Position numbers and translations under genes: made by a program | Notes under the pieces: model-generated | Databases searched by the model: none | Seen by the model: the letters and a program-made list of their open reading frames with translations, nothing else | What the model was told of the DNA's origin: nothing | DNA from: Yuukianura sp. NJ FZ-2021 | Lineage: Eukaryota | Reading direction: 5' to 3' | DNA length: 64,000 nucleotides | NCBI GenBank assembly: GCA_046563655.1 | Contig: CM102286.1 | Location: 1 to 64,000, forward strand | In this document: piece by piece, positions 15,027 to 63,347 of the stretch | Layout: every line of letters begins with the position of its first letter | Numbering within the stretch: the first letter of the stretch is position 1

Positions 15027-15177
15027 TCCTACTCCAATCTCCCCACTAAAACAAAAACAAAAACTATTTAAAACTTTGAATACTCCACTAAAAACTGTTT
15101 ACTTTTTACTAAAAAAACAATGACAAAGTACAAGAGAGTTGATGCGTCATGTGATTGTAACTAATCATATTATCATA

Positions 15178-16322: not shown

Positions 16323-16454
16323 ATTTCAAAATGATTTCCCGCACTTTTGTGTCCTAATTCTCGGAAAAAAGAGAAAGTACAGATGAGGTTATCGGACTAT
16401 TAGACCCTGCTCCATTTTGAACTTGAGACAAAGTGCGGGAAATCAGTTTGAAAT
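16323..16454. promoter_or_regulatory. Module C palindrome between RAD51C and maelstrom (E2F-like GCGGGAAA and CHR-like TTTGAA in both arms)
   Basis: ATTTCAAAATGATTTCCCGCACTTTTGTGTC ... GAGACAAAGTGCGGGAAATCAGTTTGAAAT form a ~30-bp imperfect IR around a ~70-bp core shared with 43015-43075, 45960-46020 and 56240-56300. Confidence 0.7.
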
Positions 16455-16477
16455 AAGTAAACAAATAATTCAAAAAA

Positions 16478-16622
16478 ACAGCTTGTTCGCTCTCTCGGTC
16501 CGCACCCTGGACGAGATTCACATAAATACTGCGAGAGCTGGATCCAACTCCTCGGAAGGGTAACTCCTACTCCTCTCGCTCTCATATAAAAGGAAACACA
16601 AACCAAAATTTCCTCAGTCCAC
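16478..16622 (+). promoter_or_regulatory. Module B, TATA/Inr promoter-like region upstream of maelstrom
   Basis: TATAAAAG at 16585 and a TCAGTC Inr at 16614. Related copies at 5680-5815 (+), 45755-45905 (-), 42908-42962 (-, partial) and 56060-56180 (-, diverged). Confidence 0.75.
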
Positions 16623-16983
16623 AACCAACTCTTCTTCGAAGGAGGAACGTGTTCGCCATTCGGCATAGCTTTACTAATTAGTTGGTTGATTAATCGGTTC
16701 TACTTCCAAAGGAACTCGTAAAAGGTAAGGATAACTCCACTTTTCTTAACCAACTAGGTTAGGTAGGTCCAGGGGGTACTTCAGATAAGGAATCTATCTC
16801 AATCTCAAGGGGTCAAAGAGTAGGGTCACACAGTTACAGATTAATAGTCTCTTTTGAGATATCTCATGTAGTAAGCGTTAAGTATGATTTGAGTATTAAT
16901 TCTGCCTGGAATTCGGTACTGATTTTTGGTCGCATATTTCAGTCCAAGTGTTTTTTAAAGATTTGTGGACCAAAATTCTGACG

Positions 16984-39700: not shown

Positions 39701-41439
39701 TTAGCGTCATTTGCATCTCCATAGCCTAGCAACCACTCCTAGTCCCACCATGACTCATTCTAAAGTTGCCGATTCGTGAAATTGGAAATGAAAAGTCCCC
39801 CTCCCACTTCCACTCTTCCTCAAATCAAAACCAAAAGTCCAAGGGCGACAGTGACTCAGCCACCAAACCCAAGGCTACAAAAGACTCAAGATCTTAAGTG
39901 AATGTGCTTCTGAATTAATTTAGCATTCTGACAACTGAAAACCTCCTCTTAAACTGACTGACGAATGGAAGAATGGAACCTACTTTCCTACTTTTGATGT
40001 GCTTACCCGTCATTGTTTTAAACTGATCCAAGTAGCAACTCTTTTGTACAACTTCACCTTGGTCCTGGGATTCCTTGAGGAAAAGGAAGTTGGAGATGCT
40101 GTACATTGGACCCCTCACTCTCACTTTCTCTCAATACTTTCACTTCAACTTAAGTGGGACTACAGATGAGGAGATCATTCCGAGCACAAGGCAGAGAAGC
40201 GACTGACGTGAGTGGAGGGGAAAGTGTCTCCTCCTAACTTCTTTCGCTCCTTCTGCACATGAGCAACCAAAGCCAGATCCCCACTCACTCCTCACCACAC
40301 TTAGCACGATCATCCTGACGCAGAGGAATTCCAACCAAAAGGTCAAGGTCAACCACGCTCTATGCATCCATGCTTAATTTCCCTATACAAAGTACCCTCT
40401 GCCCTCTACCTTCATTTTCTACTTTCCCCATTCAATTCCATGCCATTCAACCTAACTTTTAAAATGTATCCAACTAACCACATTCAAAAACGCGAATCTA
40501 ACGTGGGTTGATTAGAATAAAACTTACGATTCGTCATTGAAGTTCCGGAATGTGAGTAGGAATCGCTCAAGTGTGACATCAAACGCAATTTGTTGAGAGC
40601 AGAAGTTGGCTTAGCGAAGGTGGAGATGTGTGGAGTGTGTGACTGGTCAGTCGTCGCTTGAATCCTCTGGAAATGGACTTGACATGGCAGCAGTTGCTGT
40701 CATTGTGCCTAACCAGTAACCTAGCTTGAGGTTTGTTAGATATTGAATCCTAGTTTCTTCATGCAGTTGCGATGGGCTTCTATCAATGCTGTACAGTTGT
40801 CCTCTCCATGCTCCACGATACTAAAAAGTAAACCAAACATGTTCAATTACTAAAACTCAGCGATGCTGTCTGCGTTAATTAAGCTAAAACTTCTCAATTA
40901 CCAGGCATCTCTGACTCGTTTGGTTTCAGAACAGGCAAAACAGGATTTGCGAGGTTTGTTCTATGATGAGTTCGAGTTCTTCGGATCTTCAGTGGTTCGC
41001 GTTGACCTTGTAAAACAAAACAAAAATTAAGTATTTCGGCTAAACATGCCTAAGTTAAGCCAGGAATTGGAGCGTATACTAATCGTTTGACTTGTTCTTA
41101 CCCCAGCATTATTCCATAAGCACCGGTGCAGTGCAAATCAATTGTTTTTATCACAATTAAACTTCAAAAGCACTGTGCTTGTCCCCCTCCTCAGCTGTTA
41201 AAATAACATTTTAAATTCAAAGTTCAAAAATACACAATTTAGAGGGAACTGTGGAGGCTATTCTTGCAACACTGTCACCCACTTGATAGAAGCATAGCAT
41301 ATGGGCATTCAAACAAAAATTTAATTAGCAAAACTAATAAATTAACTAAAATAAAGCTCAAACAATTAACGTCCTTCTTTAGAGATTTATTTTAATTAAA
41401 AACCGTCAACTTACAACTGGTTCTTTATTACTAACTTAA

Positions 41440-42600
41440 TTATGCTAGGTTTCTATTTTTTGAAAGTGTCCATATGCGAAGGCTAGAAAGGCTGAAGAGA
41501 AAGTCCCTCTTTGTTGAGCCCAATTATTTATCTGGAATTTAAAATTATGGAGTTGGCGCCAATTCCGACAAGCGTCCTGCCTTCCTTATGAGTATCAAAA
41601 TAACCTCTGGCTTTGACAGGAGAAAGTTATTTGTCAATTGGAAAGTTGTGCAAATTACTTGACCTTTAACGATTTATTTGGAACTTAAATGACTGTCGAA
41701 CAGATTGAAACAGTTTCCACAAAGGTATTTGTGGTCTCTTATCCAGAAGAAACACTCACTTCAACATCAATTCTTTGTTTTCGCTTAAATAACTCCATTT
41801 TCAAAACTGGAACCAAAACCACGAAGAAAGGTAGCGAAAACAATGGAGAGAAACTGAAATTGAAGAGATTTTGACCTTTGACTTTGATTAAACAACCGAA
41901 CATGAAAGTAGAACTTGTGTTTTTAGAGTGGACGTAACCAAAACAGAAAATAAAGTTGAGTCAACTCACAGAAAGTCTCCCTGTTCTCAGGAACTTTTCC
42001 CGTTCTCACACTCAAAAATTGAAGCCTTCTTTATGTGATGATGTTGGAAAAGCATGAAAAATGACTTTTTACATAAGAAAATTGTTGCAACTGTCAAGAA
42101 ACAACAACTTTAGCATTAATTGGCCTTTTCAGCCCTGTTTTCGGTTAAATAATTTGAAAAAAAAAACAACAACATTTTTTTAACTTTCATAAGAAAAGGA
42201 CAAAGGAAGTTTAAGAAAAGGAAGCAGAAAAAATGGAAATGAAAGGTTTGTAGAACTTTTACTTAGATTTAAGAAGGGAAACTGTATGGAGAAGATGCAA
42301 GTTTAGTATACCAAAACCAAAATAAAATTGAAGTGGATTCTGCCTGTTCTGAGGAACTTTCTCCATTTTTCTTAACAAAATGTTTTGTTTTCGGGGGTTT
42401 GGAGTTGGGATGGTCCCCACATGCATTTTTTCCATTGCCACCCACTCCCTCCCCCACCATCCAACTCCAAAAGAGTAGAATCTTCCTTCGTTCTACTCCT
42501 TTCGGCTTCATATAAAAGGGAAGCTCAACAAATTCTTTTCATTCACTTTTTGTTGTCGTTCGAGAGATGAAGGAAGAGGAGTCACAGTTTCCTTATGTAA
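41440..42600 (+). repeat. Cassette copy 1: module U (~1 kb) + module A (hairpins, TATA at 42511, Inr ~42539)
   Basis: Colinear similarity with 44400-45600 and 54925-55880, e.g. AGTTGGCGCC..CTTATGAG..AGGAGAAAGTTATT..AATTGGAAAGTTGTGCAAATTAC (copies 1-2), ATTGGCCTTTT.AGC, and TTGGAGTTGGGATGGTCCCC..CATCCAACTCCAAAAGAGTA..TATAAAAGGGAAGCTCA. Confidence 0.85.
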
Positions 42601-42749
42601 ACAAAGACAATCTGCTCCCTCTTCAGTTCTTTTTAATTGTCATCTCCAATTAACTTCCATTTTAGTTAATTGATCGATTGAATTATCAATCAAAAGATCC
42701 AGGGAATAGATGCATCAAAACATTGTAATTTTGAATTTGTGAAAAGATG

Positions 42750-43130
42750 TTGGGGGTTTGGAGTTGGGATGGTCCCTGCATGCATTTTTTTCATTGCCAC
42801 CCACTCCCTCCCCCAACATCCAACTCCAAAAGAGTAAAACACTGCTTCGTTCTACTCCTTCCGTCTTCATATAAATGGGAAGCTCAACCAATTCTCTCCT
42901 CCTCTGAACTATTTATGTGAATCTCAACCCCTGGTGCGGACCGCCGATGTAACAAGCTGCTTTTACAACTTTTGTTTTTGTGATTTCGTCTCAAGTTCAA
43001 AGTCAACCTTGAGGCTAATCCTCTGAAAACAACAGAAACTGCTGACGATTATCGCAGCATTAGACGCCGCTACGATTTGAACTTGAGACGAAATTGCGGG
43101 AAATCTTTTCAAAATTTCAAAAGTCAAAAT
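42750..43130. repeat. Second module A (TATA at 42870) joined to a partial reverse module B and palindrome C (42983-43094)
   Basis: Motif identity with the other copies. Perfect 19-bp IR ATTTCGTCTCAAGTTCAAA / TTTGAACTTGAGACGAAAT. Confidence 0.8.
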
Positions 43131-43293
43131 CAAAAAAAACAACTAAAGATCCAGATCAAATTCTAATTCACCAGCTAATAATTTGAGGGAAGGAAGTGAA
43201 CATTAACAATTTTAGTTATAACTCTGATGTGACGTTTGACCTAGGACTGACCTCTACTGCTTGGGTCAACGTATCTACACAAGTACAGCGACC

Positions 43294-43627
43294 ATGCTAA
43301 CTGCCAATTGGAATGGATGGCTAAAAGACCTCGGTCCCTGTCCCTGGACACTGCGGACGACATATCGCTACCGTTCGACCCAGCGCCTTGTGTATTCGGA
43401 ATTCGGTGACCCAGCTCAAGTACTCCGCTTCGAAGACAACGTCGACATTGGTACAGGGAAGGACCGGGTAAGGGCACTTGTCTTCGCAAAAAAAAACAAA
43501 CAAATCAGTGTTTTTGTTTTAACAATCCTTTTCTTCTGAGTTTCAGCTTGTTGTGAAGATGCTTGGCAGTCCAGTGAATCCGGCGTACATCAACACAATC
43601 CAGGGGAATTATCCCATCAAACCCTAA
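43294..43627 (+). pseudogene. MECR: Mitochondrial trans-2-enoyl-CoA reductase 5' fragment
   Basis: Exons 43294-43467 and 43547-43627 give ...LVYSEFGDPAQVLRFE...|LVVKMLGSPVNPAYINTIQGNYPIKP*. The rest of the gene is absent. Confidence 0.8.
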
Positions 43628-43656
43628 GTATTTCCTATTTTCCGTCTACTTCCCAG

Positions 43657-44100
43657 GGACTTGTTGCTTGGATTGGAAACTTGGTCAACAGTGTCACTAG
43701 CGGCTCTTCAGCCACTTCTGTTGGGAGCGAAGATGAGGCTTTGAATGCAAAATGCGAGGACCAAGCGAAAGAGATCTTCCGAGTGGATGACAAGAAACCA
43801 ACTTGCAAAATGCAAGTTCGCCTTCTGGATGGAAAGAAGTAAGAATGTCTTTGCATAACCAACGAAAGAAACAATGAAATTAGTGACATGTTGTTTATTA
43901 ACAGGATGTCTGTGGTGTTGAACAACACGGTGACTGTGGAACAACTCCGCCAATACATCACCATTGCTCGGCCATCGCTCGCTGAAGTGCCGTTTCGCCT
44001 TTTCGCTGGTCATCCAAGCAAGGCCATTGAAGATGAGACAGCAACGTTGGAAGACGCCACCTTGGCAAACGCCGTGATTCTCCTCCAACAAGCCAAATGA
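43657..44100 (+). pseudogene. p47/NSFL1C-family UBX domain 3' fragment
   Basis: FRVDDKKPTCKMQVRLLDGKK|MSVVLNNTVTVEQLRQYITIARP...FRLFAGHPSKAIEDETATLEDATLANAVILLQ* resembles the p47-type UBX domain. No UBA or SEP exons upstream. Confidence 0.75.
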
Positions 44101-44399
44101 TTCAAACAATGCTGCCTTTGAATCAAACACAATTCCAATTTTTCAAAAAAAAAAGTTAAATATGAAACAGCACTTGCCCAACGAATTTCACACTTATTAG
44201 ACGACTATCCTTTTCGTTTTCATTCTTAAATTGCAAAGTATTTCAATCAAAATGGATTATCCTTTTAAGCGGTTTTCGTTGTTTTGTTCAACTCCTCAGG
44301 ATTGGGAAATAAAATTTTAATTTGTTTCACTTACGATCATCACAGAACCATTACGTTTTACTAAAACTAATTAAGTTTGAGTGGATTCTTCGCAGTTTT

Positions 44400-45600
44400 C
44401 TAGGTTGTCTTTCGTTTGTATTTTTTAAAGATGCCCATATGTGAAGTTATGAAGGGTGCACAGAAAAACTGTTTGTTGGACTGTTTATTTTTGTTTAATT
44501 TTAAATTGAGTAGTTGGCGCCTTTGTTGCTCGGAAGGCGTCTTGTCTTCTTATGAGGACCAAAAACGCCTTCAAGGAGAAAGTTATTTCGCCAATTGGAA
44601 AGTTGTGCAAATTACGAATCTTTAACGGTTAATTTGGTACTGAAAATGGCGGTTGATCAGAATGAAACAACTTTCATTAGTGTAGTCCATCTTTATTCAC
44701 CACAAGAAACACTTCTTTTAACATAACTTCCATTTTACATGCTTAGATTTTGATTAAAGTGAATTTTCAAACAGAAACTAAAACTAGGAAGAAAGTTGGT
44801 GAAAATAATGCAAAGAAAGTGCAAATTGGAAAGCTTTTGCCCTTTGATTTTGTTGGGACAAGAGAAAATGTGTGGAGGATTTGTGTTTTGAGAGTGGACG
44901 AAAGTGAAACTGAGAATAAAGTGGAGTCAACTCTCATGGACTCTCCCTGTTCTCACCAACTTTCTGTGCTTTTCACACTCAAAAAATTCAAGCTTTTTTG
45001 ACGAAATAATGAAGGAAAATCATTACAATTGACTTTTTACGCAAGAAAATTGCTACAACTGATGTTCTGTTTTTTTTTACAAGAAAACAACACTAATTTC
45101 CTCATGAATTGGCCTTTTTAGCTCTGTTTTGGGTTAAATAACCCGAAAAATTCTTGTTTTTAACTTTCATACGAAAAGTACAAAGAAAGTTGGAGAAAGG
45201 ATGTAGGAAAAGTGAAATTAAAAAGCTTTTTGAGCTTTTATTTAGATTTGAGAAGCAAAAGTGCATGGAGAAGATGCGAGTTTGGTGGCCAAAAACCAAA
45301 ATAAAATTGAAGTAGAGTGAACTCCAATGTATTCTGCCTGTTCTGAGGAACTTTCTCTGTTTTTCCACACAAAAAGTTGGAATTTTGGGGGTTTGGAGTT
45401 GGGATGGTCCCCACATGCATTTTTTCCATTGCCACCCACTCCCTCCCCCAACATCCAACTCCAAAAGAGTAGAATCTTCCTTCGTTCTACTCCTTTCGGC
45501 TTCATATAAAAGGGAAGCTCAACAAATTCTTTTCATTCACTTTTGTGGTCTTGTACGGGAGATGAAAGAAGAGGAGACAGTTTCCTTATGTGAACAAACA
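44400..45600 (+). repeat. Cassette copy 2: module U + module A (TATA at 45505, Inr ~45533)
   Basis: Module A is near-identical to 42399-42548, and U is colinear with copy 1. Confidence 0.85.
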
Positions 45601-45754
45601 TCACGTTTCTTCATCACTTATTTTTAATTTATGCGTGAGAAAGTTGTTAGAAGTGTTAGGTATTTTTATTTGTATTTATATTTAATGTATTTGAAAATTA
45701 AGTTAATTACTCATTAAATCACTCATTAACTTGAGTGTCATTTTGCTTCTTCAA

Positions 45755-46080
45755 GTTGTTGACTGAGGTGATTTTGGTTTTGTGTTTCCTTTTATATGAG
45801 AAGGAGAGGAGTAACAAGTTACTCTTCGAGGAGTTGGATCCAGCTCGCTCGAAGTATTTATGTGAATCTCATCCCGGGTGCGGACTCCGAGCGAACAAGC
45901 TGCTTTTACAACTTTTGTTTTTGTCCTTTCGTCTCAACTGCAATCCAAGTCATGTTAAAGGCTAATCCTCTGAAAATAGCAGAAACTGCTGACGGTTATC
46001 TCAGTATTCGTCAATTTTGCAACTTGAACTTGAGACAAAAGTGCGGGAACTCTTTTCAAAAATCCAAAAGTCAAAAATAA
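45755..46080 (-). promoter_or_regulatory. Reverse module B (TATA 45790-45796, Inr GACTGA at 45761) + palindrome C
   Basis: The reverse complement aligns to the maelstrom-upstream region 16478-16622, including CCTCAGTC.ACAAC. The C core and GCGGGAA arm lie at ~45960-46052. Confidence 0.8.
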
Positions 46081-46249
46081 AATTAAACTTGCAGCTGGAA
46101 GATCAAATTAAATTGAAAAAGAAGAAGAGCTAGAGGCAAGTCAATTTAATTTTAATTAACGTAATCAATGATTAAGTTAATTAGTGCTTAACTCCTCTTC
46201 CTAATTCGAAGGCCCATCAGTTGATACGTGATTTGACAACTATAGTGGA

Positions 46250-46915
46250 ATGATTGACGTGCGGGACATTCTTGACCTGGGCAATGAGGTCCCTGGGTCA
46301 TCTGTGCAGAAGAAGCCGCAACGGAAGGTAAACAACCGCTTAAAATATTGTGGATGTTCTTTAATTAGCTAAGTTATACCTTAATTAGTCTAAACTTCAG
46401 TCAAAGTAACTAGTTTCTTTGTTGTTTTGTAGTCGGACGTTGTGTTCAAGCGTCCGGAAGGCATGCCAAGGGAGTTGTATGCTCTACTATGTGCTGACGG
46501 TGGAAAGAACCAGGAACTAGCTCCATTGTTGCCAACGGATATCACAGGAGGTTACAAACAGAAAGTTAATCTAGGAGCCAAGAAAGTGCGGCACTGGAAG
46601 TGGACGCCTTTTACAAATCCAGGACGAACCGACGGAGCAGTATTTTATCACTGGAGACGAGTGGGAGAAGAGACTAGAGAGTATCCATTTGCCAAATTCA
46701 ACAAAGTAACTCTGAACTACTAATAACTTAATTAAATAATTAACTTCAGTTCTCAATTAACTAAATTGTTTTCATGTTAACAGGAGATTCCGATCTTGAA
46801 GTACTCAGAGGCCGAGTACTCGAATCATCTGGAGAAAGAAGGGTGGACGAAGGAGGAGACTGATCATCTCTTTGACCTCGCCAGAAGATTCGACCTTAGA
46901 TTCCCCATCATACAC
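46250..46915 (+). pseudogene. DMAP1: DNMT1-associated protein 1 (DMAP1/Eaf2), first three exons only
   Basis: MIDVRDILDL...|FKRPEGMPRELYALL...KVRHWKWTPFTNPGRTDGAVFYHWRR...YPFAKFNK|...YSEAEY...GWTKEETDHLFDLARRFDLRFPIIH. No downstream exons were found; module A follows at 46981. Confidence 0.85.
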
Positions 46916-46974
46916 GTAAGACTCATCCATGGTTTCACTCTTTGATTTCTAATTTTAGTTAACCCCCTAATTTT

Positions 46975-47130
46975 GGGGGTTTGGAGTTGGGATGGTCCCC
47001 ACATGCATTTTTTCCATTGCCACCCACTCCCCCATCATCCAACTCCAAAAGAGTAAAATCCAAAGGAATCCTACTCCTTCCAGCTTCATATAAAAAGGAA
47101 GCTCACATAATTCCTCTCCTTCACTCACGT
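46975..47130 (+). promoter_or_regulatory. Solo module A (TATA at 47089) directly after DMAP1 exon 3
   Basis: TTGGAGTTGGGATGGTCCCCACATGCATTTTTTCCATTGCCACCCACTCC..ATCCAACTCCAAAAGAGTAAAA..CTACTCC..CATATAAAAAGGAAGCTCA..TTCACTC. Confidence 0.8.
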
Positions 47131-48409
47131 CTCTGTCTTGGACGAGGAGAGGAAGGGTTTTTGTGTTGGAGAGATGGCGCTGCAGAGAGAGGGTGACTGG
47201 TGTTGTGTGTGGCTTTTAGTGCAACCGGCGTCTCCTTCATTTGAATTTTCTCCCTCCTTCCTGCCGCATTCGTCTCCTCTTCGTCGTCACTTTTGTTCCT
47301 CTGTCTTCAGCTGTATCCTCTCCTCTCCCGCAAGTAAAGTGTCCGTTACTTTAATTCAAGTTTAATTAACGTTCATCGATTAAGCATTGTTGTTAGTTAG
47401 TAGTTGTTAGTCACAATCTCATGACCATACAAAGTGTCAACTACAGGTAACAACAACTAACAACTAAAGGAACCAAAAGTCATAAGGTCTAACGGTCAAT
47501 GTTTGTTGCTTTGTTTTAGTTGGGACTTGGGAATGGGGCTTTCTAAAAATGGACACCCACATCGTCACCTTTCAAATCGGCATCACCTCTTCCAAATCTT
47601 TTGATCCTGCATCTCTATTCTCCATTTCAGTCGTCGTTCCTCTTGTGCAAACTTTGGCGACGAATCATTCACACCTCTCCATTTCTACTACTTCAATCGT
47701 TGCTCAAGTACTTGGAAGGTAGGACGCGAAGCACTTTTCACATTCCACTTTCCACATTTTGATAACAAGGTAAGGAACACTCTTTTTCATTACTCCTAGT
47801 TGACATTTAGTCATTTGTTTGGGCTTCAATTGGTCATAGTGAGAACCGTTGAGGTCAAACGTAGTTCAAAGGTCAGGTCACTTGGACAAACGTAATTCGG
47901 AAGGGAGGGACTTTACCGGGGTTCAGTCCTTACATGAGGTGCTAAAAATGGAATTGAGATGCTGGGAAGACAAATGGCCCAACACTTGCCATCTTTGTAT
48001 TTGCCAGTGTTTATATTCCATCTTCATTCCTTTAGACTCAATCAATTCAGTTCCAGTGCAGGGTGACACTGGATTCATTTACCTAACGTACACTTCCAAG
48101 ATAGCTAAGAGATTCTTCTCAAAACAACTCACGCATTCCACAGCATCTCGATTCCAAAGTTATTGTATGATTCTGATCCCACGTTATTTTTGTTTTTGGT
48201 TTTAGATAAGTGGCAAGATGCTAACACTTCTATTCTTGCCTAAGTATTTTAAAGTTCAACTGAAGTCTGAAGTTATGTACTTTTGTTTTTGTTTAGAAGG
48301 AGTAGTGTGGCTATGGGGGACTCTGCCTCACTATTTTTAGCTCAGCCGTAGGGACTAGTCGGGAGCAGTATTTGGGAGGGGAAATAGCTTAAAAATGACC
48401 AAATATCAG

Positions 48410-48752
48410 AAACGGTTTGCTTTTTGAATTTTTAGTGGGGGATTTTAAAAGTTCTTTGAAAAACAACTTTTCTGCAGAAAAACTTTTTTTTAATTTTAAA
48501 TTACTTTTCAAACGTTGCTTTTTGAATTTTTAGTGGGGGATTTAAAAAGTTCTTTTAAGAACAACTTTTCTCTAGAGAAACATTTTTAAAAATAATTTTA
48601 GTTACTTCTCAAACGTTGCTTTTTGAATTTTTAGTGGGGATTTAAAAAGTTCTTTTAAAAACAACTTTTCTCTAGAAAAACTTTTTTTTTAAATTTTAAA
48701 TTACTTCTCAAACGTTGCTTTTTGTATTTTTAGTGGGGGATTTAAAAAGTTC
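48410..48752. repeat. ~100-105-bp subterminal tandem repeat (3+ copies)
   Basis: AAACGTTGCTTTTTGAATTTTTAGTGGGGGATTTAAAAAGTTCT recurs. Confidence 0.85.
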
Positions 48753-50940
48753 TATCCTTTCAAATATTTAATCCTTATTTCTAGGCTTCGAATCATTCGC
48801 AACTTTTTATCTTTTCAAATATTTAATCCTTACTTTTAAGCTTCGAATCCTCCGCAATTTTTTCTATCCTTTTAACCATTAAATTCTTAGTTCTAACCTT
48901 CAAATCCTTCGCCTCTTTCTATGTTTTTAACCATTAACTTCGTAGTTCTAAGCTTCGAATCCTTCGCCTCTTTCTATGTTTTTAACCATTAACTTCGTAG
49001 TTCTAAGCTTCGAATCCTTCGCCACTTTCTATCTTTTTAACCATTAAATTCTTAGTTCTAAGCTTCGAATCCTTCGCCACTTTCTATCTTTTTAACCATT
49101 AAATTCTTAGTTCTAAGCTTCGAATCCTTCGCCACTTTCTATCTTTTTAACCATTAAATTCTTAGTTCTAAGCTTCGAATCCTTCGCCACTTTCTATCTT
49201 TTTAACCATTAAATTCTTAGTTCTAAGCTTCGAATCCTTCGCCACTTTCTATCTTTTTAACCATTAAATTCTTAGTTCTAAGCTTCGAATCCTTCGCCAC
49301 TTTCTATCTTTTTAACCATTAAATTCTTAGTTCTAAGCTTCGAATCCTTCGCCACTTTCTATCTTTTTAACCATTAAATTCTTAGTTCTAAGCTTCGAAT
49401 CCTTCGCCACTTTCTATCTTTTTAACCATTAAATTCTTAGTTCTAAGCTTCGAATCCTTCGCCACTTTCTATCTTTTTAACCATTAAATTCTTAGTTCTA
49501 AGCTTCGAATCCTTCGCCACTTTCTATCTTTTTAACCATTAAATTCTTAGTTCTAAGCTTCGAATCCTTCGCCACTTTCTATCTTTTTAACCATTAAATT
49601 CTTAGTTCTAAGCTTCGAATCCTTCGCCACTTTCTATCTTTTTAACCATTAAATTCTTAGTTCTAAGCTTCGAATCCTTCGCCACTTTCTATCTTTTTAA
49701 CCATTAAATTCTTAGTTCTAAGCTTCGAATCCTTCGCCACTTTCTATCTTTTTAACCATTAAATTCTTAGTTCTAAGCTTCGAATCCTTCGCCACTTTCT
49801 ATCTTTTTAACCATTAAATTCTTAGTTCTAAGCTTCGAATCCTTCGCCACTTTCTATCTTTTTAACCATTAAATTCTTAGTTCTAAGCTTCGAATCCTTC
49901 GCCACTTTCTATCTTTTTAACCATTAAATTCTTAGTTCTAAGCTTCGAATCCTTCGCCACTTTCTATCTTTTTAACCATTAAATTCTTAGTTCTAAGCTT
50001 CGAATCCTTCGCCACTTTCTATCTTTTTAACCATTAAATTCTTAGTTCTAAGCTTCGAATCCTTCGCCACTTTCTATCTTTTTAACTACTAAATTCTTGG
50101 TTCTGAGCTTCGAATCCTTCGCCACTTTCTGTCTTTTTAACCATTAAATTCTTAGTTCTAAGCTTCGAATCCTTCGCCACTTTCTATCTTTTTAACCATT
50201 AAATTCTTAGTTCTAAGCTTCGAATCCTTCGCCACTTTCTATCTTTTTAACCATTAAATTCTTAGTTCTAAGCTTCGAATCCTTCGCCACTTTCTATCTT
50301 TTTAACCATTAAATTCTTAGTTCTAAGCTTCGAATCCTTCGCCACTTTCTATCTTTTTAACCATTAAATTCTTAGTTCTAAGCTTCGAATCCTTCGCCAC
50401 TTTCTATCTTTTTAACCATTAAATTCTTAGTTCTAAGCTTCGAATCCTTCGCCACTTTCTATCTTTTTAACCATTAAAATCTTCTAAGCTTCGAATCCTT
50501 CGCCACTTTCCATCTTTTTAACCATTAAATTCTTAGTTCTAAGCTTCGAATCCTTCGCCACTTTCTATCTTTTTAACCATTAAATTCTTAGTTCTAAGCT
50601 TCGAATCCTTCGCCACTTTCTATCTTTTTAACCATTAAATTCTTAGTTCTAAGCTTCGAATCCTTCGCCACTTTCTATCTTTTTAACCATTAAATTCTTA
50701 GTTCTAAGCTTCGAATCCTTCGCCACTTTCTATCTTTTTAACCATTAAATTCTTAGTTCTAAGCTTCGAATCCTTCGCCACTTTCTATCTTTTTAACCAT
50801 TAAATTCTTAATTCTAAGCTTCGAATCCTTCGCCACTTTCTATCTTTTTAACCATTAAATTCTTAGTTCTAAGCTTCGAATCCTTCTCCACTTTCTTTCT
50901 TTTTAACCATTAAATTCTTAGTTCTAAGCTTCGAGTCCTT
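48753..50940. repeat. 55-bp satellite (ACCATTAAATTCTTAGTTCTAAGCTTCGAATCCTTCGCCACTTTCTATCTTTTTA), ~40 copies
   Basis: Period 55 (CCATT at 49041 and 49096). Homogeneous core with a diverged left edge. Confidence 0.97.
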
Positions 50941-50941
50941 A

Positions 50942-52050
50942 AAGGTATAATTTACATTCAGAGAGAAATTTTTTACAAAATTTATTCTTTGTTAAGGTGT
51001 CAATTCACTTTCAAAGAGAAATTTTTTACAAAATTTATTATTCTTTGTTAAGGTGTCAATTCACTTTCAGAGAGTAATTTCTTGTAAAATTTATTATTCT
51101 TTGTTTAGGTGTAAATTCACATTCGGAGACAAATTTTTTAAAGAATTTATTATTCTCTGTTAAGGTGTAAATTCACATTCGGAGACAAATTTTTTAAAGA
51201 ATTTATTATTCTCTGTTAAGGTGTAAATTCACATTCGGAGACAAATTTTTTAAAGAATTTATTATTCTCTGTTAAGGTGTAAATTCACATTCGGAGACAA
51301 ATTTTTTAAAGAATTTATTATTCTCTGTTAAGGTGTAAATTCACATTCGGAGACAAATTTTTTAAAGAATTTATTATTCTCTGTTAAGGTGTAAATTCAC
51401 ATTCGGAGACAAATTTTTTAAAGAATTTATTATTCTCTGTTAAGGTGTAAATTCACATTCGGAGACAAATTTTTTAAAGAATTTATTATTCTCTGTTAAG
51501 GTGTAAATTCACATTCGGAGACAAATTTTTTAAAGAATTTATTATTCTCTGTTAAGGTGTAAATTCACATTCGGAGACAAATTTTTTAAAGAATTTATTA
51601 TTCTCTGTTAAGGTGTAAATTCACATTCGGAGACAAATTTTTTAAAGAATTTATTATTCTCTGTTAAGGTGTAAATTCACATTCGGAGACAAATTTTTTA
51701 AAGAATTTATTATTCTCTGTTAAGGTGTAAATTCACATTCGGAGACAAATTTTTTAAAGAATTTATTATTCTCTGTTAAGGTGTAAATTCACATTCGGAG
51801 ACAAATTTTTTAAAGAATTTATTATTCTCTGTTAAGGTGTAAATTCACATTCGGAGACAAATTTTTTAAAGAATTTATTATTCTCTGTTAAGGTGTAAAT
51901 TCACATTCGGAGACAAATTTTTTAAAGAATTTATTATTCTCTGTTAAGGTGTAAATTCACATTCGGAGACAAATTTTTTAAAGAATTTATTATTCTCTGT
52001 TAAGGTGTAAATTCACATTCGGAGACAAATTTTTAAAAAAGTTTATTAGT
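50942..52050. repeat. 56-bp satellite (AAGGTGTAAATTCACATTCGGAGACAAATTTTTTAAAGAATTTATTATTCTCTGTT), ~20 copies
   Basis: Period 56 (ATTCGGAGAC at 51121 and 51177). The first units are diverged. Confidence 0.97.
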
Positions 52051-52968
52051 TAGTTTGTCGATATTTAAGTGACGGACTTTTTTCGTTTGAGATATTTGGT
52101 CATTTTGAAGTCCCCCCCCCCCTCCCAATACTGCGCCCGGCTAGTCCCTACGGCTGAGCTAAAAATAGCGAGGCTGAGTTCCTCCCACCCACACTACTGA
52201 AGGTGCTGCGATGAGTATTGGGAAGAGGTGCCGTTGCGGAAGTGAAGATGCGATCACGTGGCCTGACAGTGAAGCAATGGCCAACTTCCGGAAGAAGAAG
52301 GATGAACTGAAGTTGTACATGGAGAGAATGAACGAAGTCAAATGTAAGTCAATAATGTTCAGTATTCTTTAAAGAGTAATTTTGGTTGATTGACAGTTCC
52401 GGATGTGGTATGTGGTGAGAGCTTGATTGTTGATTCCTCCTCAATGTGTCTTTGGCCATGTCACTAATTGTGACAATAATATTTCCCTAGCTCTAAAAGG
52501 TTACAATTACAAAGAGTGTGTTGAGATGAGATACGATTTGTAGTTTTATATTGAAGATCCTAAACTTTTCTTGGTTCCTCCCCTGACTTCTTTATATTTT
52601 TGGACAGGAGTCAAAAGATTCGTAGAGAGGAAGAGACTTGGCATTAGTAAGCCAATTCTTGATTGAATCCCATTTAAGTTTACTCAAAAGTTATTTAGTG
52701 TAAAAGTTAATTATAATCAACTAAACTGGTCGTGTATTAGTTAAAGTTAAGATGGATTTAATAACGTCCAAGAATGTCCCACGTTCCGCAACTGGTAATG
52801 GCGATTCCAATTTTGAATGAATGTCTCTAAGTAAAGAGGTTTACATGATACGAATTACTAATTAAATTTTAATTAATTTTTTTGCTAAAGGGAGTCAACA
52901 GCCATCGAAACTTGGAGGGTACGTCGCAGGTCAGACGAGGAAAGGATCACGAACTCCAGATCAAAACA

Positions 52969-54649
52969 ATGTCAGACCCGGAACTCTTCTTGGAAGGTGC
53001 TTGCTATCATTTGGATACGTTCAAGAGGTCACCTCACTTGACCTCTTACCTCAAAGTCCACTCACTTTTGTTTTTCCTAAAACAGACAAGGAATACGAAC
53101 TAAAGGGAATCTACGGAAGATGTGTCTCTTGTGATACCGTTGTCGGAACTCAGCTCTGTCTCAGATGTACTTTCATTGGATGTGTCAAGGGAGGGCACTT
53201 GAAGGAACACTTCGAAAGTACTGGACACGAACTAGGTATTTAACTCACTCACTTCCTAAACTTAATTTTGTCTGATTGTCGATTGCTTTCTTTTTAGCCT
53301 CCAACTTGTCAAATGGATCCATCTACTGCTTCAACTGCTCAGACATCTTTGTTGATCGTCCAGGCACTCATTCACACACCCATTCTACGTAACTTCTTAT
53401 CAAGTGAAATCAACTGCTCAGAAAAACATGACATCGGGAAGAGGAAACCCTGCATTGTCAGTTTGGTTGCGGATCTATACCAAGAGGTTTGTAAAGTTGC
53501 TGAAAATGGGACCACAGTTCTCTCCTTTCTCATTAGCTCATTAATCTCATTAATCATGTGAAACTAATCCTGCTTTTGGTAACAGTTTTACAGTGGAAAG
53601 GAGACGGCGATGAGTTTGCATGATTTGCTGTTCAAGATTTGGGCCAATGCTTCTCATTTGGCTGGTTACGAGTAACAAGATGCCCATGAATTCTTCATCG
53701 CCATGCTAGATGCTCTTCATCTGCATTTCCATGCTCCTGATCTCAGAGGAATCTGTAACTGTGTCATCGATCTCACCTTCCTGCGCAAACTGGAATCAGC
53801 TGTTACTTGCATCAGTTGTGGGTAAGACTCTCCTATAAATAGCAGCACTGCAGCATTTAATTGAAATTGGTTCAGTTAAAACGTTTTTTTCGTTCTATGT
53901 AACCAGTCACAAATCCATCACTGTTGATCCATTCTGGGATACTTCACTTGACTTAATGACAGATGACCCCGGAGTAACATTGACCCTGAGTGATTGCCTC
54001 ACTCGCTACACGAGAGTGGAGCACTTGGGCTCCACTGCAAAGATTTGGTGTACAAAATGCAACAGCAACCAGGAATCAACGAAACAACTCAAGTTCAAAT
54101 CCCTTCCGATGGTTCTCTGTCTCCACCTCAAGGTAATTTAATTTATTACTAATTACTTTTGTAATTACTTTCAGTTCCAGTATACTAACAAAGTATTTTT
54201 TGTTTTGCAGCGGTTTGAGCACAGGACGAGCTATAAGAAGATTGACACGAGAGTGGAATTTCCCGAGCATCTGTCAATGTATGACTACACCTCGGACTCT
54301 GCCATCCAGGAAGAACCAGGCTCCAACCTCCGATCCAGTGTCAACAGACTAAGTGCCAAGTAAGTACTTTTTTACAAGTTTTTCAACTTTATAAGTTTCA
54401 AGTTTTTAAGTTTTGAGACTCCTAACCTAACTTTTTGTGACAGATATGTGCTGTATGCAGTGGTAAACCACGTGGGTTCGCTGGAAGGCGGTCACTATTT
54501 TACTTACATCCTGCACGCAGGGGACTTGGTACAAATGTGACGACCACTGGGTCACTATCGTCCATCAGTCAGAAGTACTCGCCAATCCAGGATACTTGCT
54601 CTTCTACCACAAACAACTCATCTCAAAACCCATTTCCATCTCACAGTAA
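52969..54649 (+). pseudogene. USP22: USP22/nonstop (SAGA deubiquitinase) pseudogene
   Basis: ZnF-UBP (CVSC..LCLRCTFIGC..HLKEH..GSIYCFNCSD), IVQALIHTPILRNF, HLAGYE*QDAHEFFIA (TAA at 53673), [38 protein letters not shown]. Frameshifts are present and the catalytic Cys box is absent. Confidence 0.9.
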
Positions 54650-54924
54650 ACCAATAGACTAATTCAGATTAACGATTAGGGTAGTTAAAAGTCAAGTTCA
54701 GAGGCTCATTGAGTTGAACACTCCCATTCAAAGGCAGTGACGCAGAGTTAAAGGGACTCTTTTTATGACACAAAAAGCAAAACAAGTTTGTTGATTTTTT
54801 TTTCAACTTTCTAAATAATTTGTCGATGATGAAGTCACTTTTGATTTTTAGAGTATCATATAATTAAATCTGTTAAAATGAGATACTTTGAAGAAAGTTG
54901 ATTCGTCATTTGCAGCCTTAGGAA

Positions 54925-55882
54925 CTTTAATGATTAATTTGGAACTTAAAATGGCAACTGACCATGCTGAAACAATTTTTGCAAGGTGTTGCATATTTTT
55001 CCAACATAAGAAACATTTACTTCAGTAATAACTCCATTGTAAGTCTTGTTTTCATTTAAAAATTCCATTTTCAAACGAAAACAAAAACTAGAAAGAAAGC
55101 TGGTGAAAGTAAGGTGGAGAAAGTGAAACTGGAAAGCATTTGACCTTTGAAGTTTGTTTGGACAGGTGAAAATTGATTTAGAGTTTGTGTTTTTAGAGTA
55201 GTAGAGTACTAGACAAAACTCAAAATAAAACTGAAAGTGGAGTCAACTGCTAAAAGGAGTCTCCCTGTTTTCAGGAACTTTCTGTGTTTTTCGCACTCAA
55301 GAAATTGAAGTTTTCCTAGTTTAATTGAAGTTTACGAAATGATGAAGGAAAAGCATGACAAATGACTTTTTACACAACAAAATTAATAAGTAAAACTGTC
55401 TTTCTTGTCTCTTCACACGAAGAAAACAATAATTTCAGCAATAATTGGCCTTTTTAGCCCTGTTTTCAGTTAAATGACCTAAAAAAGGCATTTTTTTAAC
55501 ACTCATAAGAAAAGGACAAAGAAAGTTTAGGGAAAGGATGCAAAAGAAGTGAAATTGAGCAGCTTTTGGTACTTTCACTTGGATTTTAGAAGCGAAAGTG
55601 CATGGAGAAGACGTGAGTTTGGTGTTCAAAAACCAAAATAAACTTGAAGTGGAGTGACCTCCATCCAATAGGATTCTGCCTGTGCGGAACTTTCTCCATT
55701 TTTTCACTCGAAATGTTTGTTTTTTGGGGGTTTGGAGTTGGGATGGTCCCCAATGCATTTTTTCCATTGCCACCCACTCCTTCCTCCAACATCCAACTCC
55801 AAAAGAGTAAAATCCAAAGGAATCCTACTCCTTTTCTCTTCGTATAAAAGGGAAGCTCACCAAGTTTTTCCTCTTCACTCAT
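54925..55882 (+). repeat. Cassette copy 3: module U + module A (TATA at 55843)
   Basis: Colinear with copies 1 and 2 from TTAATTTGGAACTTAAAATGG onward. Confidence 0.82.
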
Positions 55883-56059
55883 CAACACAGTGGAGCTTCC
55901 TCCGTTCTCGTCTGCTGTGGCCTTTGACCCTTCACTCTTGTTTTTCTTATGACTAAATCATTGACCCACAAGGTCAAGGTCATGGCAATTATGCAATGCT
56001 CATAGTCACTCCGTCATGCAGACTTTTGGTGGCATTTTGGTTCATTTGTTGGTTTTTGT

Positions 56060-56365
56060 GGAGTGATTGAGATTTTGGTTTGTTTTCCTTTTTTATGAAA
56101 GCAAAAAGAGTAAGATGCTACTCGTCTGGGTCTATTTATAACATTTCCCATTCCGAGTGCGGACCTAGTCGGCTAACAAGAATTCCGCAACAATTTTGGC
56201 TGCTGAGAGTCATTTTGTCTCAAGTCCAAGTGACCTTGAAGGCTAATTCTAAGAAAACAGCACAAACTGCAGCATGGTTATCTCAGCATTAGACATCGTG
56301 TAACTTGGACTTGAGACAAAATTGCGGGAACTCGCTTCCAAAATTCAAAATTTAAAATCAAAATT
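56060..56365 (-). promoter_or_regulatory. Diverged reverse module B + palindrome C (56212-56322)
   Basis: GATTTTGGTTTGTTTTCCTTTTTTATG..GTGCGGAC..AACAAG. Perfect 20-bp IR ATTTTGTCTCAAGTCCAAGT / ACTTGGACTTGAGACAAAAT, followed by GCGGGAA. Confidence 0.75.
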
Positions 56366-56493
56366 AATTCAGACATCAAATTCTTAAATTCAGTTTTCTT
56401 AAATTAGAATTAGGCTGATTGATTAATTTTAACTAATTAATTGGGTTTCCATTAACATCTCCGTCTGCGTTAACAACTGTTGGTGACCCAGCG

Positions 56494-56748
56494 ATGATCC
56501 CGGAACTGCGACAACCCGAGAAAACCGGCAATGTGAAATTGGACACCAGAATCGCTATAATTGGGACTGGGAGCGGAATTGCTGGTTTATCGACTGGACT
56601 TGCCCTGCACAACTCTGGATTTACTCAAGTAAGGATTTACGAACGACACGATTGTTTTGACCGGAGACGACAAGGGTATGGACTCACAATGCTACAAGGA
56701 AATAATACCCTCGCCTCAGAAGACTCAGACTCTAGAAAATGGAACTGA
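56494..56748 (+). pseudogene. FAD-dependent monooxygenase N-terminal (Rossmann) fragment
   Basis: RIAIIGTGSGIAGLSTGLAL..SGF..VRIYER...RRQGYGLTMLQG, followed by a stop. No downstream domain was seen. Confidence 0.65.
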
Positions 56749-63274: not shown

Positions 63275-63347
63275 TACCCCAGGCAGGACTTGAACCTGCA
63301 ATCTTCGGTTTAGGAGACCGACGCCTTATCCATTAGGCCACGGGGGC
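63275..63347 (-). tRNA. tRNA-Arg (anticodon CCT)
   Basis: GCCCCCGTGGCCTAATGGATAAGGCGTCGGTCTCCTAAACCGAAGATTGCAGGTTCAAGTCCTGCCTGGGGTA folds as a 73-nt cloverleaf, with a T-rich tract downstream. Confidence 0.95.

Follow-up and report, generated by a model that had tools for sequence, protein, structure and literature searches.

Three diverged copies of a non-coding repeat, 1.5–1.7 kb long and made of promoter-like modules, lie near a chromosome end, apparently of a springtail, in the window (the whole stretch of 64,000 nt analysed here), and each copy is followed by the 5′ end of a truncated gene (a ‘stump’). We tentatively characterize this cassette as a promoter-bearing repeat of no established class that, through rearrangement at the DNA level, came to have promoter-proximal pieces of genes attached to its C end, a reading that we hold with slightly less than even confidence. 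The copies, with modules U, A, B (or B′) and C, are as follows.

41449–43144, + strand: cassette copy 1, from blastn, finer alignment and module profiles; U 41449–42388, A 42389–42571, second A 42747–42900, distal remnant of reversed B 42906–42981, C 42978–43139
44414–46086, + strand: cassette copy 2, the fullest of the three; U 44414–45380, A 45381–45566, spacer, reversed B′ 45741–45924, C 45921–46086
~54892–56367, + strand: cassette copy 3, its start set by a more sensitive run; U 54892–55721, A 55722–55881, degenerate reversed B′ 56056–56126, C 56208–56367

An earlier, sequence-only reading of this DNA had described three copies with modules U, A, B and C, and both blastn and the per-module identities bear this out. 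Copy 1 matched copy 2 at 75.0% over 1247 columns (41449–42638 versus 44414–45629); copy 3 matched copy 1 at 70.6% (54922–55869 versus 41661–42537) and copy 2 at 75.8% (54918–55869 versus 44612–45531), each over 964 columns; the B/C parts gave 77.6–81.2% between copies. By module, identity among the three copies was 70–74% in U, 83–98% in A, 42–59% in the A–B spacer, 50–63% in B and 78–80% in C; 3′ of C it was 36–44%, as in unrelated sequences, and homology ends at the C end. The U of copy 2 has an internal repeat (44777–44988 resembles 45171–45378), the U of copy 3 is short of ~165 bp at its start, and copy 1 has undergone a local tandem duplication of 359 bp that put a second A in place of the TATA-proximal half of B seen in copy 2. 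The cassette was said to have no ORF of its own; indeed, its ORFs had no match in Pfam, nor did the cassettes have one in Rfam. The notion of a modular, non-coding, promoter-like unit is likewise supported by the module identities and by the TATA+Inr architecture of the following elements.

45505–45538, + strand: putative promoter A core of copy 2, TATAAAAG then Inr-like TCATTC; predicted +1 at ~45535, rightward
45761–45796, − strand: putative promoter B′ core of copy 2, TATAAAAG then TCAGTC; predicted +1 at ~45764, leftward
46969–47154, + strand: solitary A, without U, 48 bp past the last DMAP1 exon; predicted +1 at ~47123, rightward
5648–5832, + strand: forward B′ at the promoter position of an MBT-domain gene; TATA at 5779, predicted +1 at ~5810, 5′UTR donor after 5924, ATG at 6021
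16324–16635, + strand: C (16324–16474) then forward B′ (16459–16635), filling the gap between a Rad51 paralog and maelstrom

Module A, credited to the three copies, is present in all of them, yet its count in the window is five, not three (42389–42571, 42747–42900, 45381–45566, 46969–47154 and 55722–55881). A and the reversed B′ are, as far as sequence can tell, related TATA+Inr core promoters facing each other. The A core architecture recurs at 42511–42544, 47089–47126 and 55843–55880; TATAAA, a 21–27 nt gap and TCA(G/T/C)TC are found in seven of the nine A/B′ modules (three B′, four A), against a chance expectation of 0.08–0.15, with predicted +1 sites at 42541, 45535, 45764, 47123, 55877, 5810 and 16616. 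The A-type core pattern had five matches, the 5.7-kb B′ site included, versus 0.15 by chance (none of 100 shuffles reached five), and the B′-type pattern three versus 0.08. The motif ATCCAACTCC occurs 10 times versus 0.18 expected, nine times inside A or B′ modules. That the two modules are akin is seen in a direct match (45489–45538 versus 5763–5813, 78.8%, E 1e-5) and in a joint A+B′ profile, which gave exactly nine copies at E ≤8e-12, the next match being at E 0.1; homology between A and B′ ends within ~15–25 nt of the predicted start site. Sequence and position together suggest that A and B′ fire as promoters.

The identity of A (83–98%) while the adjoining U stays at 70–74% is a sign of constraint. 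Greater conservation of A could reflect gene conversion instead of selection. In its three contexts B′ is 70–79% identical, with five blocks of at least 9 bases in invariant columns (none of 10000 column shuffles gave as many), a further sign of constraint; the pattern comes from three sequences only, and gap placement by the aligner can inflate its blocks.

In copy 2 the predicted starts of A (45535, +) and B′ (45764, −) converge, ~229 bp apart. Overlapping transcripts from such a pair could make the cassette a source of dsRNA or small RNAs, with siRNAs or piRNAs directed against the cassette family or the parent genes; leftward transcription from B′ would then also cross, in antisense, the pieces of genes that lie upstream. 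The presence of B′ before maelstrom, a piRNA-pathway gene, gives a hint of germline expression, and a chromosome-end location with gene fragments resembles known small-RNA clusters. Still, we consider such a role very unlikely, as the stumps are sense to the nearest promoter and the convergent pair is intact in copy 2 only: the B′ core is replaced by the second A in copy 1 and the B′ TATA box is degenerate in copy 3.

B′, with or without C, lies at the predicted promoter position of two apparently intact host genes in the window, which lends further support to the promoter-like reading. From the predicted B′ +1 there are 114 nt to the 5′UTR splice donor and 211 nt to the ATG in the MBT-domain gene, and 108 and 368 nt, respectively, in maelstrom (plus strand; predicted +1 at ~16616, donor after 16724, ATG at 16984). 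Maelstrom was identified by Pfam matches to HMG_box_2 and Maelstrom; the identity of the MBT-domain gene is weak, the end of its ORF matching the start of the SCML2/L3MBTL3 MBT repeats at E 9e-4 to 4e-3. The Rad51 paralog is on the minus strand (5′UTR donor 16120, ATG 15966).

Module C is a long palindrome, ~120 bp, ending 40–50 bp before cassette homology stops. The palindrome is true in three of the four window copies (DNA folds of −26.7 to −29.5 kcal/mol, z −4.7 to −6.5, none of 200 shuffles as good) and decayed in copy 2 (z +0.62); 2 of 26 palindrome pairs have changed on both sides with pairing kept, another sign of constraint. The relative orientation of C and B′ in the cassettes is opposite to that at the 16-kb site; thus, the modules do not form one fixed unit.

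The gene pieces found downstream of C are listed below.

43294–43627, + strand: MECR 5′ stump; exon 1 43294–43467, exon 2 43547–43624, then directly an in-frame TAA
43650–44100, + strand: p47/NSFL1C-like 3′ piece; last two exons, UBX domain and stop codon
46250–46918, + strand: DMAP1 5′ stump; exons 46250–46327, 46433–46708 and 46784–46918, with GT/AG borders
56494–56745, + strand: FAD/NAD(P)-binding oxidoreductase 5′ stump; ATG and GxGxxG Rossmann exon only

The stumps are outside the repeat unit. A gene ATG does follow each copy, as had been noticed, but at 127–164 bp rather than 170–200 bp past C (159, 164 and 127 bp from the end of C homology for the MECR, DMAP1 and FAD/NAD enzyme copies). 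Truncation of all three genes, also part of the sequence-only reading, was confirmed by exon and orthologue comparison. The MECR stump retains ~84 codons of ~350; its exon 2 matches residues 35–61 of 364 in Etr1/MECR (E 1.7e-5), and exon 1 alone had no match in PDB. An intron-like remnant of 29 nt links this stump to the p47-like piece, which matches Pfam UBX (E 6.2e-6) and the p47 UBX domain in PDB (E 2.7e-7, residues 308–366 of 370 in 7r7s_I). The DMAP1 stump covers residues ~1–178 of ~466, ending within the SANT domain (Pfam SANT_DAMP1_like, E 1.4e-16, profile positions 9–54 of 80); the remainder is absent from the whole 64 kb in tblastn searches with four full-length orthologues. Its conservation is that of true orthologues, 68% to the nearest protein, whose own identity to two other top matches is 57–59%. 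The FAD/NAD enzyme stump had Pfam matches to NAD_binding_8 (E 1.2e-3), DAO (0.014) and FAD_binding_3 (0.16), and weak PDB matches to amine oxidase and monooxygenases (E 0.03–0.17). Past this stump, a separate gene with an N-terminal signal peptide begins at ~57109. Since introns were kept in the truncated 5′ gene pieces, the copies arose at the DNA level. The cassettes are 26–30% different but the stumps look undecayed, so a shared history of cassette and stump is not required.

The surroundings could speak for a passive patchwork, in which the cassette is an old and dead repeat, be it a relic of a TE or a block of duplicated intergenic DNA, segmental duplications and rearrangements have built up in the chromosome-end region with their breakpoints in repeats, the stumps are by-products and the promoter-like motifs are inert. 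The window starts with (CCTAA)n, a TTAGG-type telomere, at 14–294, then satellites; between the cassettes there are satellites (48417–52048), a pair of 81-bp inverted repeats and further multi-copy sequence (47100–48300). Age and decay fit as well: the copies are 70–76% identical, decay has reached the palindrome of copy 2 and the B′ TATA box of copy 3, the stumps are apparently single-copy, and the MECR stump, closed by a stop codon, has an unrelated 3′ piece fused to it. Nevertheless, we find this account rather unlikely, as it leaves unexplained why all three cassettes have a gene 5′ end on one and the same side, oriented alike and 127–164 bp from C, why A is so much better conserved than U, why B′ precedes two intact genes at the distance of a promoter, and why genes that look intact (kinesin, protein kinase, maelstrom and NRDE-2) are located between the telomere and the cassettes.

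Evidence from outside the window was taken from contigs of four public DNA runs (X1–X4, two studies). We observed 319, 722, 940 and 1008 contigs, respectively, lying on positions 41000–48300 (7.3 kb), many of them 80–95% alike; in X1, 100 of 319 contigs were <90% alike. Summed word depth in the cassette bins was ~3–25 times that in the MECR/DMAP1 bins (401–3277 versus 134–292 in X2), although summed contig depth is not copy number, and contigs of conserved genes, thus of intact parents, may be filtered out. At a single position in U (45106) up to 13 contigs had the same variant, and loose ends of contigs cluster at 46069–46076, the C end (8, 5 and 4 contigs), running on into A-rich sequence. 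The cassettes belong to a dispersed, apparently low-copy repeat family with diverged copies elsewhere in the genome. With 319–1008 contigs per run at the cassette region the family is not confined to the window, and such further diverged copies are not the result of one local tandem duplication, an origin that the sequence-only reading had put up for checking. In the contigs all of the gene pieces look single-copy, which gives no sign of cassette and piece moving together; as the stump bins are lowest in depth, the cassette-plus-stump unit is apparently not amplified.

The same contigs bear on the assembly. A misjoin at repeated modules would mean that the truncated genes are really intact, with their other exons placed elsewhere; the window does have two scaffold gaps of 100 N each (5266–5365 and 9240–9339), and X2 record 15 (46616–46998), which leaves DMAP1 exon 3 and enters solitary A by 30 letters, is one short of the bridging rule. 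However, there are no Ns in 41–57 kb, bridging contigs exist for the C-to-DMAP1 junction in both studies (X1 record 6; X2 record 14, X3 record 22 and X4 record 30) and for the p47-to-U2 junction in X2 (record 13), and the MECR-to-p47 join is in unique, non-repeat sequence, making an artefact highly improbable.

Comparison of the copies revealed no conserved TIR or TSD, in agreement with the sequence-only reading, and no inverted match of at least 9 bp common to copies 1 and 2. Nor did we find, at the cassettes, a CTRR at a shared aligned position, Helitron ends (5′ TC, 3′ CTRR, short palindrome), Helentron/HINE subTIRs, TG...CA ends or paired LTRs. Among 509 ORF translations scanned across the window (at least 45 aa in 36–64 kb and at least 60 aa in 2.5–35.7 kb) none had a reverse transcriptase, transposase or Rep/helicase domain. 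The suggested Helitron-like capture was not borne out, as Helitron/Helentron end features are absent, and neither was a Pack-TE, as the gene pieces are outside the repeated unit.

A classical gene-capturing transposon, either a non-autonomous Helitron/Helentron acting by 3′ end bypass or a Pack-type TIR element, could still have ends too decayed or ill-delimited to be recognized. Intron-bearing pieces that follow each other in like orientation (the 5′ part of MECR, then the 3′ part of p47), a palindrome close to the unit’s 3′ end, the lack of a TSD and the sharp 3′ boundary at which loose ends of other copies lie would agree with it, and the available parts of PMC4778049, PMC5148889 and PMC4224331 describe Helitrons as capturing gene fragments and regulatory sequence. 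Helitrons have, in the available text of PMC4067079, 5′ TC, 3′ CTRR and a 16–20 nt palindrome ~11 bp from the 3′ end, and Helentrons/HINEs have subTIRs of 12–15 bp. These termini are missing here, C spans ~120 bp and stops short of the homology end by 40–50 bp, the stumps are not between the ends of the unit, and the window has no Rep/helicase or transposase domain; we regard this origin as quite improbable.

In the reading that we favour, the cassette consists of three separable modules: U–A (~1.1 kb), ending in a putative rightward TATA+Inr RNA polymerase II core promoter; B′, a putative leftward TATA+Inr promoter of 185 bp, whose proximal 50–60 bp are homologous to those of A; and C, the palindrome. 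Flanking or ectopic DNA would have been captured at the C end, through co-mobilisation of the 3′ flank or through template-switch repair at the palindrome. Each stump ends in or at an intron and starts ~130–160 bp upstream of its ATG, and hence its native transcription start region has probably come along with it. The outcome would be promoter-plus-stump units and one stump–stump chimera (MECR 5′/p47 3′). We infer the mode of stump attachment, as well as present or past mobility of the cassette family.

In host promoters derived from TEs (LTRs, MITEs), one repeat gives promoter sequence to unrelated genes, and in chromosome-end patchworks of duplicated segments gene fragments gather near the telomere. 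The cassettes resemble both, with one repeat before unrelated genes and gene fragments near the telomere; unlike in LTR or MITE promoters, the A/B′ homology does not extend through R-U5 or to a TIR.

Helitrons capture promoters, first exons and gene fragments in maize and bats, according to the available parts of PMC3288121, PMC4224331 and PMC4778049. As described there, such capture shares with the cassettes intron-bearing, DNA-level pieces of unrelated genes in one orientation, an end palindrome, no TSD and a potential for chimeric transcripts. The cassettes differ from the Helitrons so described in having no 5′ TC, 3′ CTRR or short hairpin ~11 bp from the end, in having gene pieces outside the repeat with no Rep/helicase partner seen in the window, and in conserved parts that are complete putative TATA+Inr promoters found also at host genes. 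Non-autonomous Helentrons of the DINE-1/HINE type, as far as the available text of PMC4067079 goes, are also non-coding dispersed repeats with a 3′ palindrome, but the cassette palindrome is ~10 times longer and the cassette is without 12–15 bp subterminal inverted repeats, T-rich termini and central microsatellite. In Pack-MULEs and other TIR elements, as presented in part of PMC1947982, fragments of host genes are tied to a non-autonomous repeat and exons are combined into chimeras, as they are here; the cassette, however, has no TIRs or TSD, and its fragments are beside the repeat, not within it. Finally, promoter reuse and ‘mobile promoters’ have been described in bacteria (PMC3575422, available in part): as in that account, near-alike promoter sequences stand before unrelated genes, apart from their own downstream genes, whereas the cassette modules are 185-bp eukaryotic TATA+Inr units, 70–79% identical in three contexts.

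The three copies of a promoter cassette reported by the sequence-only reading are real, as pairwise alignments of the modules demonstrated. Each copy is a non-coding repeat with the order U, A, reversed B and C, where A is a rightward promoter-like module, C is a palindrome and the reverse complement of B is designated B'.

41449-43144, cassette copy 1
44414-46086, cassette copy 2
~54892-56367, cassette copy 3

Pairwise identity among the three copies was 70-74% in U, 83-98% in A, 42-59% in the spacer between A and B, 50-63% in B and 78-80% in C. Beyond the end of C it was 36-44%, the level of unrelated sequence; thus, the repeated unit stops at C and the gene pieces lie outside it. The distance from the end of C to the ATG is 159, 164 and 127 bp in copies 1, 2 and 3, respectively. 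U contains an internal repeat of ~210 bp and starts ~165 bp later in copy 3 than in copies 1 and 2. Module A is present five times in the window, once as a solitary copy (46969-47154). Copy 1 has a second A, which a 359-bp tandem duplication has placed where the TATA-proximal half of B would be.

We observed a long hairpin fold of C at 16.3 kb as well as in copies 1 and 3 (z -4.7 to -6.5; none of 200 shuffles was equally stable), and none in copy 2 (z +0.62). In the four-copy alignment of C, 2 of the 26 predicted pairs had changed on both sides with pairing kept. The orientation of C is identical in all four copies (the three cassettes and the one at 16 kb). A reversed B' flanks it on the left in the cassettes and a forward B' on the right at 16 kb, so the modules can be separated from one another.

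Pfam scans of the 509 ORF translations of the window gave no match inside the cassettes, and in an Rfam scan of the whole window the cassettes had no match either, the sole one being a tRNA-Arg (CCT) gene (63275-63347, minus strand) directly beyond the Na/sulfate symporter gene. A short ORF downstream of the A start site was considered and ruled out, as its frame differs between copies 1 and 2; heat shock- and interferon-type motifs (HSE-like and ISRE-like) that visual inspection suggested in A and U are not conserved between copies. On visual inspection, introns, 5'UTRs and intergenic spacers throughout the window are conspicuously rich in TAATTA- and TTAATTAA-like motifs (e.g. 45680-45740, 46140-46200 and 16670-16700).

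Each cassette is followed by a 3'-truncated piece of a different gene. Behind copy 1 this piece comes from MECR:

43294-43467, + strand, MECR exon 1, which alone has no PDB match
43547-43624, + strand, MECR exon 2, with TAA directly after it

Exon 2 aligns with residues 35-61 of yeast Etr1 and residues 45-69 of human MECR (E-values 1.7e-5 to 9e-4); the MECR identification rests on exon 2. At 29 nt past the MECR stop there is an acceptor, and behind it a p47/NSFL1C-like gene is represented by its last two exons, which include the UBX domain and the stop codon. The DMAP1 piece behind copy 2 has three exons with clean GT/AG borders, covers residues ~1-178 and breaks off within the SANT domain (profile position 54 of 80); a tblastn search of the 64 kb with four full-length orthologues found no further DMAP1 sequence. 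Conservation of the piece equals that of real orthologues, and its best matches include proteins of the springtails Orchesella dallaii and Allacma fusca, an indirect sign that the DNA probably comes from a springtail. A near-length protein search with exon 2 gave a best match of 84%, with none identical or nearly so, in a collection from which the species' own proteins seem to be absent. Behind copy 3, weak but consistent evidence points to one exon of an FAD/NAD enzyme with a dinucleotide-binding motif; beyond it a different gene begins at ~57109. The ubiquitin hydrolase (USP) gene ahead of copy 3 apparently has its own start exon near 52745 and may be intact.

To look for copies beyond the window, contigs of four of five public DNA runs (from two studies) were aligned on 41000-48300 at 80% likeness or more. 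The four runs placed 319, 722, 940 and 1008 contigs on these 7.3 kb, with all identity classes represented. Summed word depth, which is not copy number, was several-fold to ~25-fold higher in cassette bins than in bins over the truncated genes; at a single position of U one variant was common to up to 13 contigs, and many contigs lose the match at 46069-46076, the end of C, and continue into A-rich sequence. Elsewhere, these genomes carry diverged relatives of U, A, B and C. The modest excess, of tens of copies rather than thousands, points to an apparently low-copy family. Low and even depth over the truncated genes was at one point taken to mean that close parent copies do not exist; this argument was dropped, since contigs of conserved genes may have been filtered and depth is not copy number.

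In one run a contig over 41000-42417 had depth 82 versus 10-14 for the truncated genes, with approximately unique depth there in the other three runs. The sequence directly upstream of copy 1 is thus apparently also repeated in that organism, and the unit may really begin to the left of the start of copy 1. The stretch 40900-41449, ahead of copy 1, is possibly amplified in one of the two organisms. The junction between C and DMAP1 was bridged by contigs from both studies and the junction between p47 and U of copy 2 by one contig; at the junction between DMAP1 and the solitary A contig cover reaches just 30 letters. That the whole arrangement is an artefact of assembly seems to us extremely unlikely.

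Two tracts beyond the solitary A should be mentioned. The stretch 47100-48300 has no Pfam match and is probably a further repeat, as its summed contig depth is ~3-7x that of the gene pieces next to it. Next to it, an 81-bp inverted-repeat pair (48301-48381 and 52118-52198, 85% complementary) surrounds 3.7 kb of purely tandem repeats (a 100-bp unit at 48417-48753, a 55-bp unit x40 at 48750-50940 and a 56-bp unit x20 at 50942-52048); 48301-52198 thus resembles an element of the foldback or TIR type with satellites as its content.

A TATA box ~30 nt upstream of an initiator (Inr, TCA(G/T)T-like) is the layout of an RNA polymerase II core promoter. Both A and B' carry TATAAAAG, followed 21-27 nt downstream by TCATTC, TCAGTC or TCACTC; in seven of the nine A/B' modules TATAAA is separated by 21-27 nt from TCA(G/T/C)TC, with a chance expectation of 0.08-0.15. 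Judged from motifs, the distance fits a TATA box paired with an initiator, and the modules have the TATA+Inr architecture of a predicted core promoter ahead of a 5'UTR exon. The proximal 50-60 bp of A and B' are homologous (78.8%, E-value 1e-5). Within this stretch the motif ATCCAACTCC occurs; the window has 10 occurrences versus 0.18 expected, nine of them inside A/B' modules. A profile made from A and B' recovered exactly nine copies in the window at E-value 8e-12 or better, everything else being no better than 0.1. Scans of metagenome collections with the A motif and the B' motif gave no match for either one in those collections. In copy 2 the predicted starts, 45535 (+) and 45764 (-), converge 229 bp apart. 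The sequence-only reading had also offered that the cassette turns gene fragments into transcripts or sources of small RNA; a small-RNA source is in our view very doubtful.

Forward B' modules were found at two genes away from the cassettes, as follows.

5648-5832, + strand, forward B', 75% identical to B' of copy 2; predicted start (+1) at ~5810
5'UTR GT donor after 5924 and ATG at 6021, + strand, start of the MBT-domain gene behind this B'
16324-16635, + strand, C followed by forward B', the latter 83.6% identical to B' of copy 2; predicted +1 at ~16616
donor after 16724 and ATG at 16984, + strand, start of maelstrom behind this B'
200 bp from C, on the side opposite to B' at 16 kb, - strand, 5'UTR donor of the Rad51 paralog

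At both places a 5'UTR splice donor follows 108-114 nt past the predicted +1, and the ATG comes only after an intron. By these gene models B', with or without C, is exactly at the expected promoter position of apparently intact genes. Alignable promoter sequence of 170-185 bp is rare between unrelated eukaryotic genes unless supplied by a repeat. Pairwise identity among the three B' contexts was 70.5-79.4%; 111 of 187 columns were invariant, in five blocks of at least nine bases. Five such blocks arose in none of 10000 column shuffles, and the longest run, 18, was reached by 0.4% of them. The invariant blocks look like conserved binding sites, a resemblance that depends on three sequences and on gap placement by the aligner.

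Among longer proteins, no homologue was found for the 402-aa ORF that belongs to the gene behind the B' at 5.7 kb. Just before this B' lie copies (5370-5610) of a 172-bp tandem repeat, which is also present at 3897-4456 (3.3 copies, 81% matches). Gaps of 100 N are located at 5266-5365 and 9240-9339; the second one splits the first MBT repeat of the MBT-domain gene. NRDE-2 (-), the Rad51 paralog (-) and maelstrom (+), whose roles are in recombination or in silencing by small RNA, are side by side at 11784-17624, and the intergenic region with C and B' is common to the latter two.

The window starts with a TTAGG-type telomere repeat, (CTAAC)n, at 14-294, indicating a chromosome end; a 46-bp satellite follows at 294-2452 (~44 copies, 97% matches). 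The gene map was built from the Pfam scans of the 509 ORF translations and two PDB look-ups.

~6.0-9.2 kb, + strand, MBT-domain gene
~9.6 kb, + strand, TFIIE-beta
11.8-14.5 kb, - strand, NRDE-2
15.2-16.0 kb, - strand, Rad51 paralog
from 16.98 kb, + strand, maelstrom
~20 kb, - strand, HLH gene
25.2-30.4 kb, + strand, kinesin with FHA and PX domains
32.1-33.2 kb, - strand, protein kinase
52.7-54.6 kb, + strand, USP-type ubiquitin hydrolase
~58.7 kb, I78 inhibitor-like exon
60.5-63.1 kb, + strand, Na/sulfate symporter

A duplicated segment shared among chromosome ends would be expected near a telomere, with copies at other ends; the cassettes are 41-56 kb from the telomere repeats, with apparently intact genes between. 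A passive patchwork near the chromosome end would be one account of the locus, and we find it somewhat unlikely. Our tentative preference, held with a little less than even confidence, is for a dispersed promoter-bearing repeat, with predicted promoter activity, whose C end became joined to promoter-proximal gene pieces by rearrangement at the DNA level.

Comparison with known element classes used cassette ends defined from the three copies and from the loose ends of other copies in contigs; the 5' boundary reads TTT(G/C)TATTTTTT. Canonical Helitrons insert between A and T without target site duplication (TSD), and an autonomous Rep/helicase partner shares their ends. Pfam scans of the 509 ORF translations of the window found no Rep/helicase, reverse transcriptase, integrase, transposase or gag domain. 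Canonical Helitrons are described as having 5' TC, 3' CTRR and a palindrome of 16-20 nt ~11 bp from the 3' end (PMC4067079); C of the cassette spans ~120 bp, its right arm ending 40-50 bp before homology stops. Canonical Helitron ends were not found; no shared aligned position of the three-copy alignment has a CTRR. For Helentron, HINE and DINE-1 elements the same paper describes T-rich termini, subterminal inverted repeats of 12-15 bp (lying 2-4 nt from the 5' end and 38-60 bp from the 3' end) and, at 8-35 bp from the latter end, a palindrome of 5-10 bp (PMC4067079); the 3' end of the cassette is A-rich instead. A search of the 5' 180 bp against the 3' 260 bp found no inverted match of at least 9 bp in copy 1 and two low-complexity AT matches, nothing more, in copy 2. 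Helitron and Helentron ends, which the sequence-only reading had proposed to look for, are absent from the aligned copies and their boundaries.

Pack-MULEs and other TIR DNA transposons have TIRs flanked by TSDs, with captured fragments between the TIRs. In the cassette the gene pieces are outside the repeat, beyond the end of homology; no TIR was found, and a search for direct repeats at the boundaries gave just AT-rich matches of 6-7 bp; the suggestion of a Pack-TE is not supported. A decayed classical capturing transposon is quite improbable. LTR retrotransposons and solo LTRs have TG...CA ends and TSDs of 4-6 bp, paired LTRs being near-identical around a PBS and a PPT. Copies 1 and 2 were considered as such LTRs, being direct repeats 1.3 kb apart, and rejected: they are only ~74% identical, with no TSD, and this 26% difference stands against intervening gene pieces that are undecayed and have kept their introns. 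Non-LTR retroposons and SINE-like elements are recognized by a tail rich in A at the 3' end, 5' truncations of varying length, TSDs on both sides and a partner that encodes reverse transcriptase. All three copies have an A-rich 3' end and copy 3 is without the first ~165 bp; no TSD, and no reverse transcriptase in the window, was seen. The A-rich tail and the one 5'-shortened copy would be compatible with a non-LTR origin. A narrow literature search found no published description of such a cassette.

A single promoter module is thus seen in three contexts within the window: ahead of apparently intact genes, as part of a dispersed non-coding cassette, and beside cut-off gene fronts. If the modules are silent, the locus is a tidy, ordinary case of repeat-mediated patchwork near a chromosome end. 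If they fire, a single locus would show both promoter copying and recombination of promoter-plus-exon pieces, with bearing on how chimeric genes originate and on regulatory rewiring in a little-studied arthropod group. One could go further and see here a eukaryotic counterpart of 'mobile promoters', with A/B' copied around the genome and cassettes capturing and transcribing gene pieces, though in this full form the comparison is improbable. Self-contained A/B' modules of ~185 bp, sometimes with C, would be copied independently of coding sequence and would by now act as promoters of unrelated host genes, among them the chromatin and germline genes maelstrom and the MBT-domain gene. Full cassettes, whose promoters converge, would take up promoter-proximal gene pieces at the palindrome and transcribe these; they could thereby supply raw material for new chimeric genes, or sources of small RNA.
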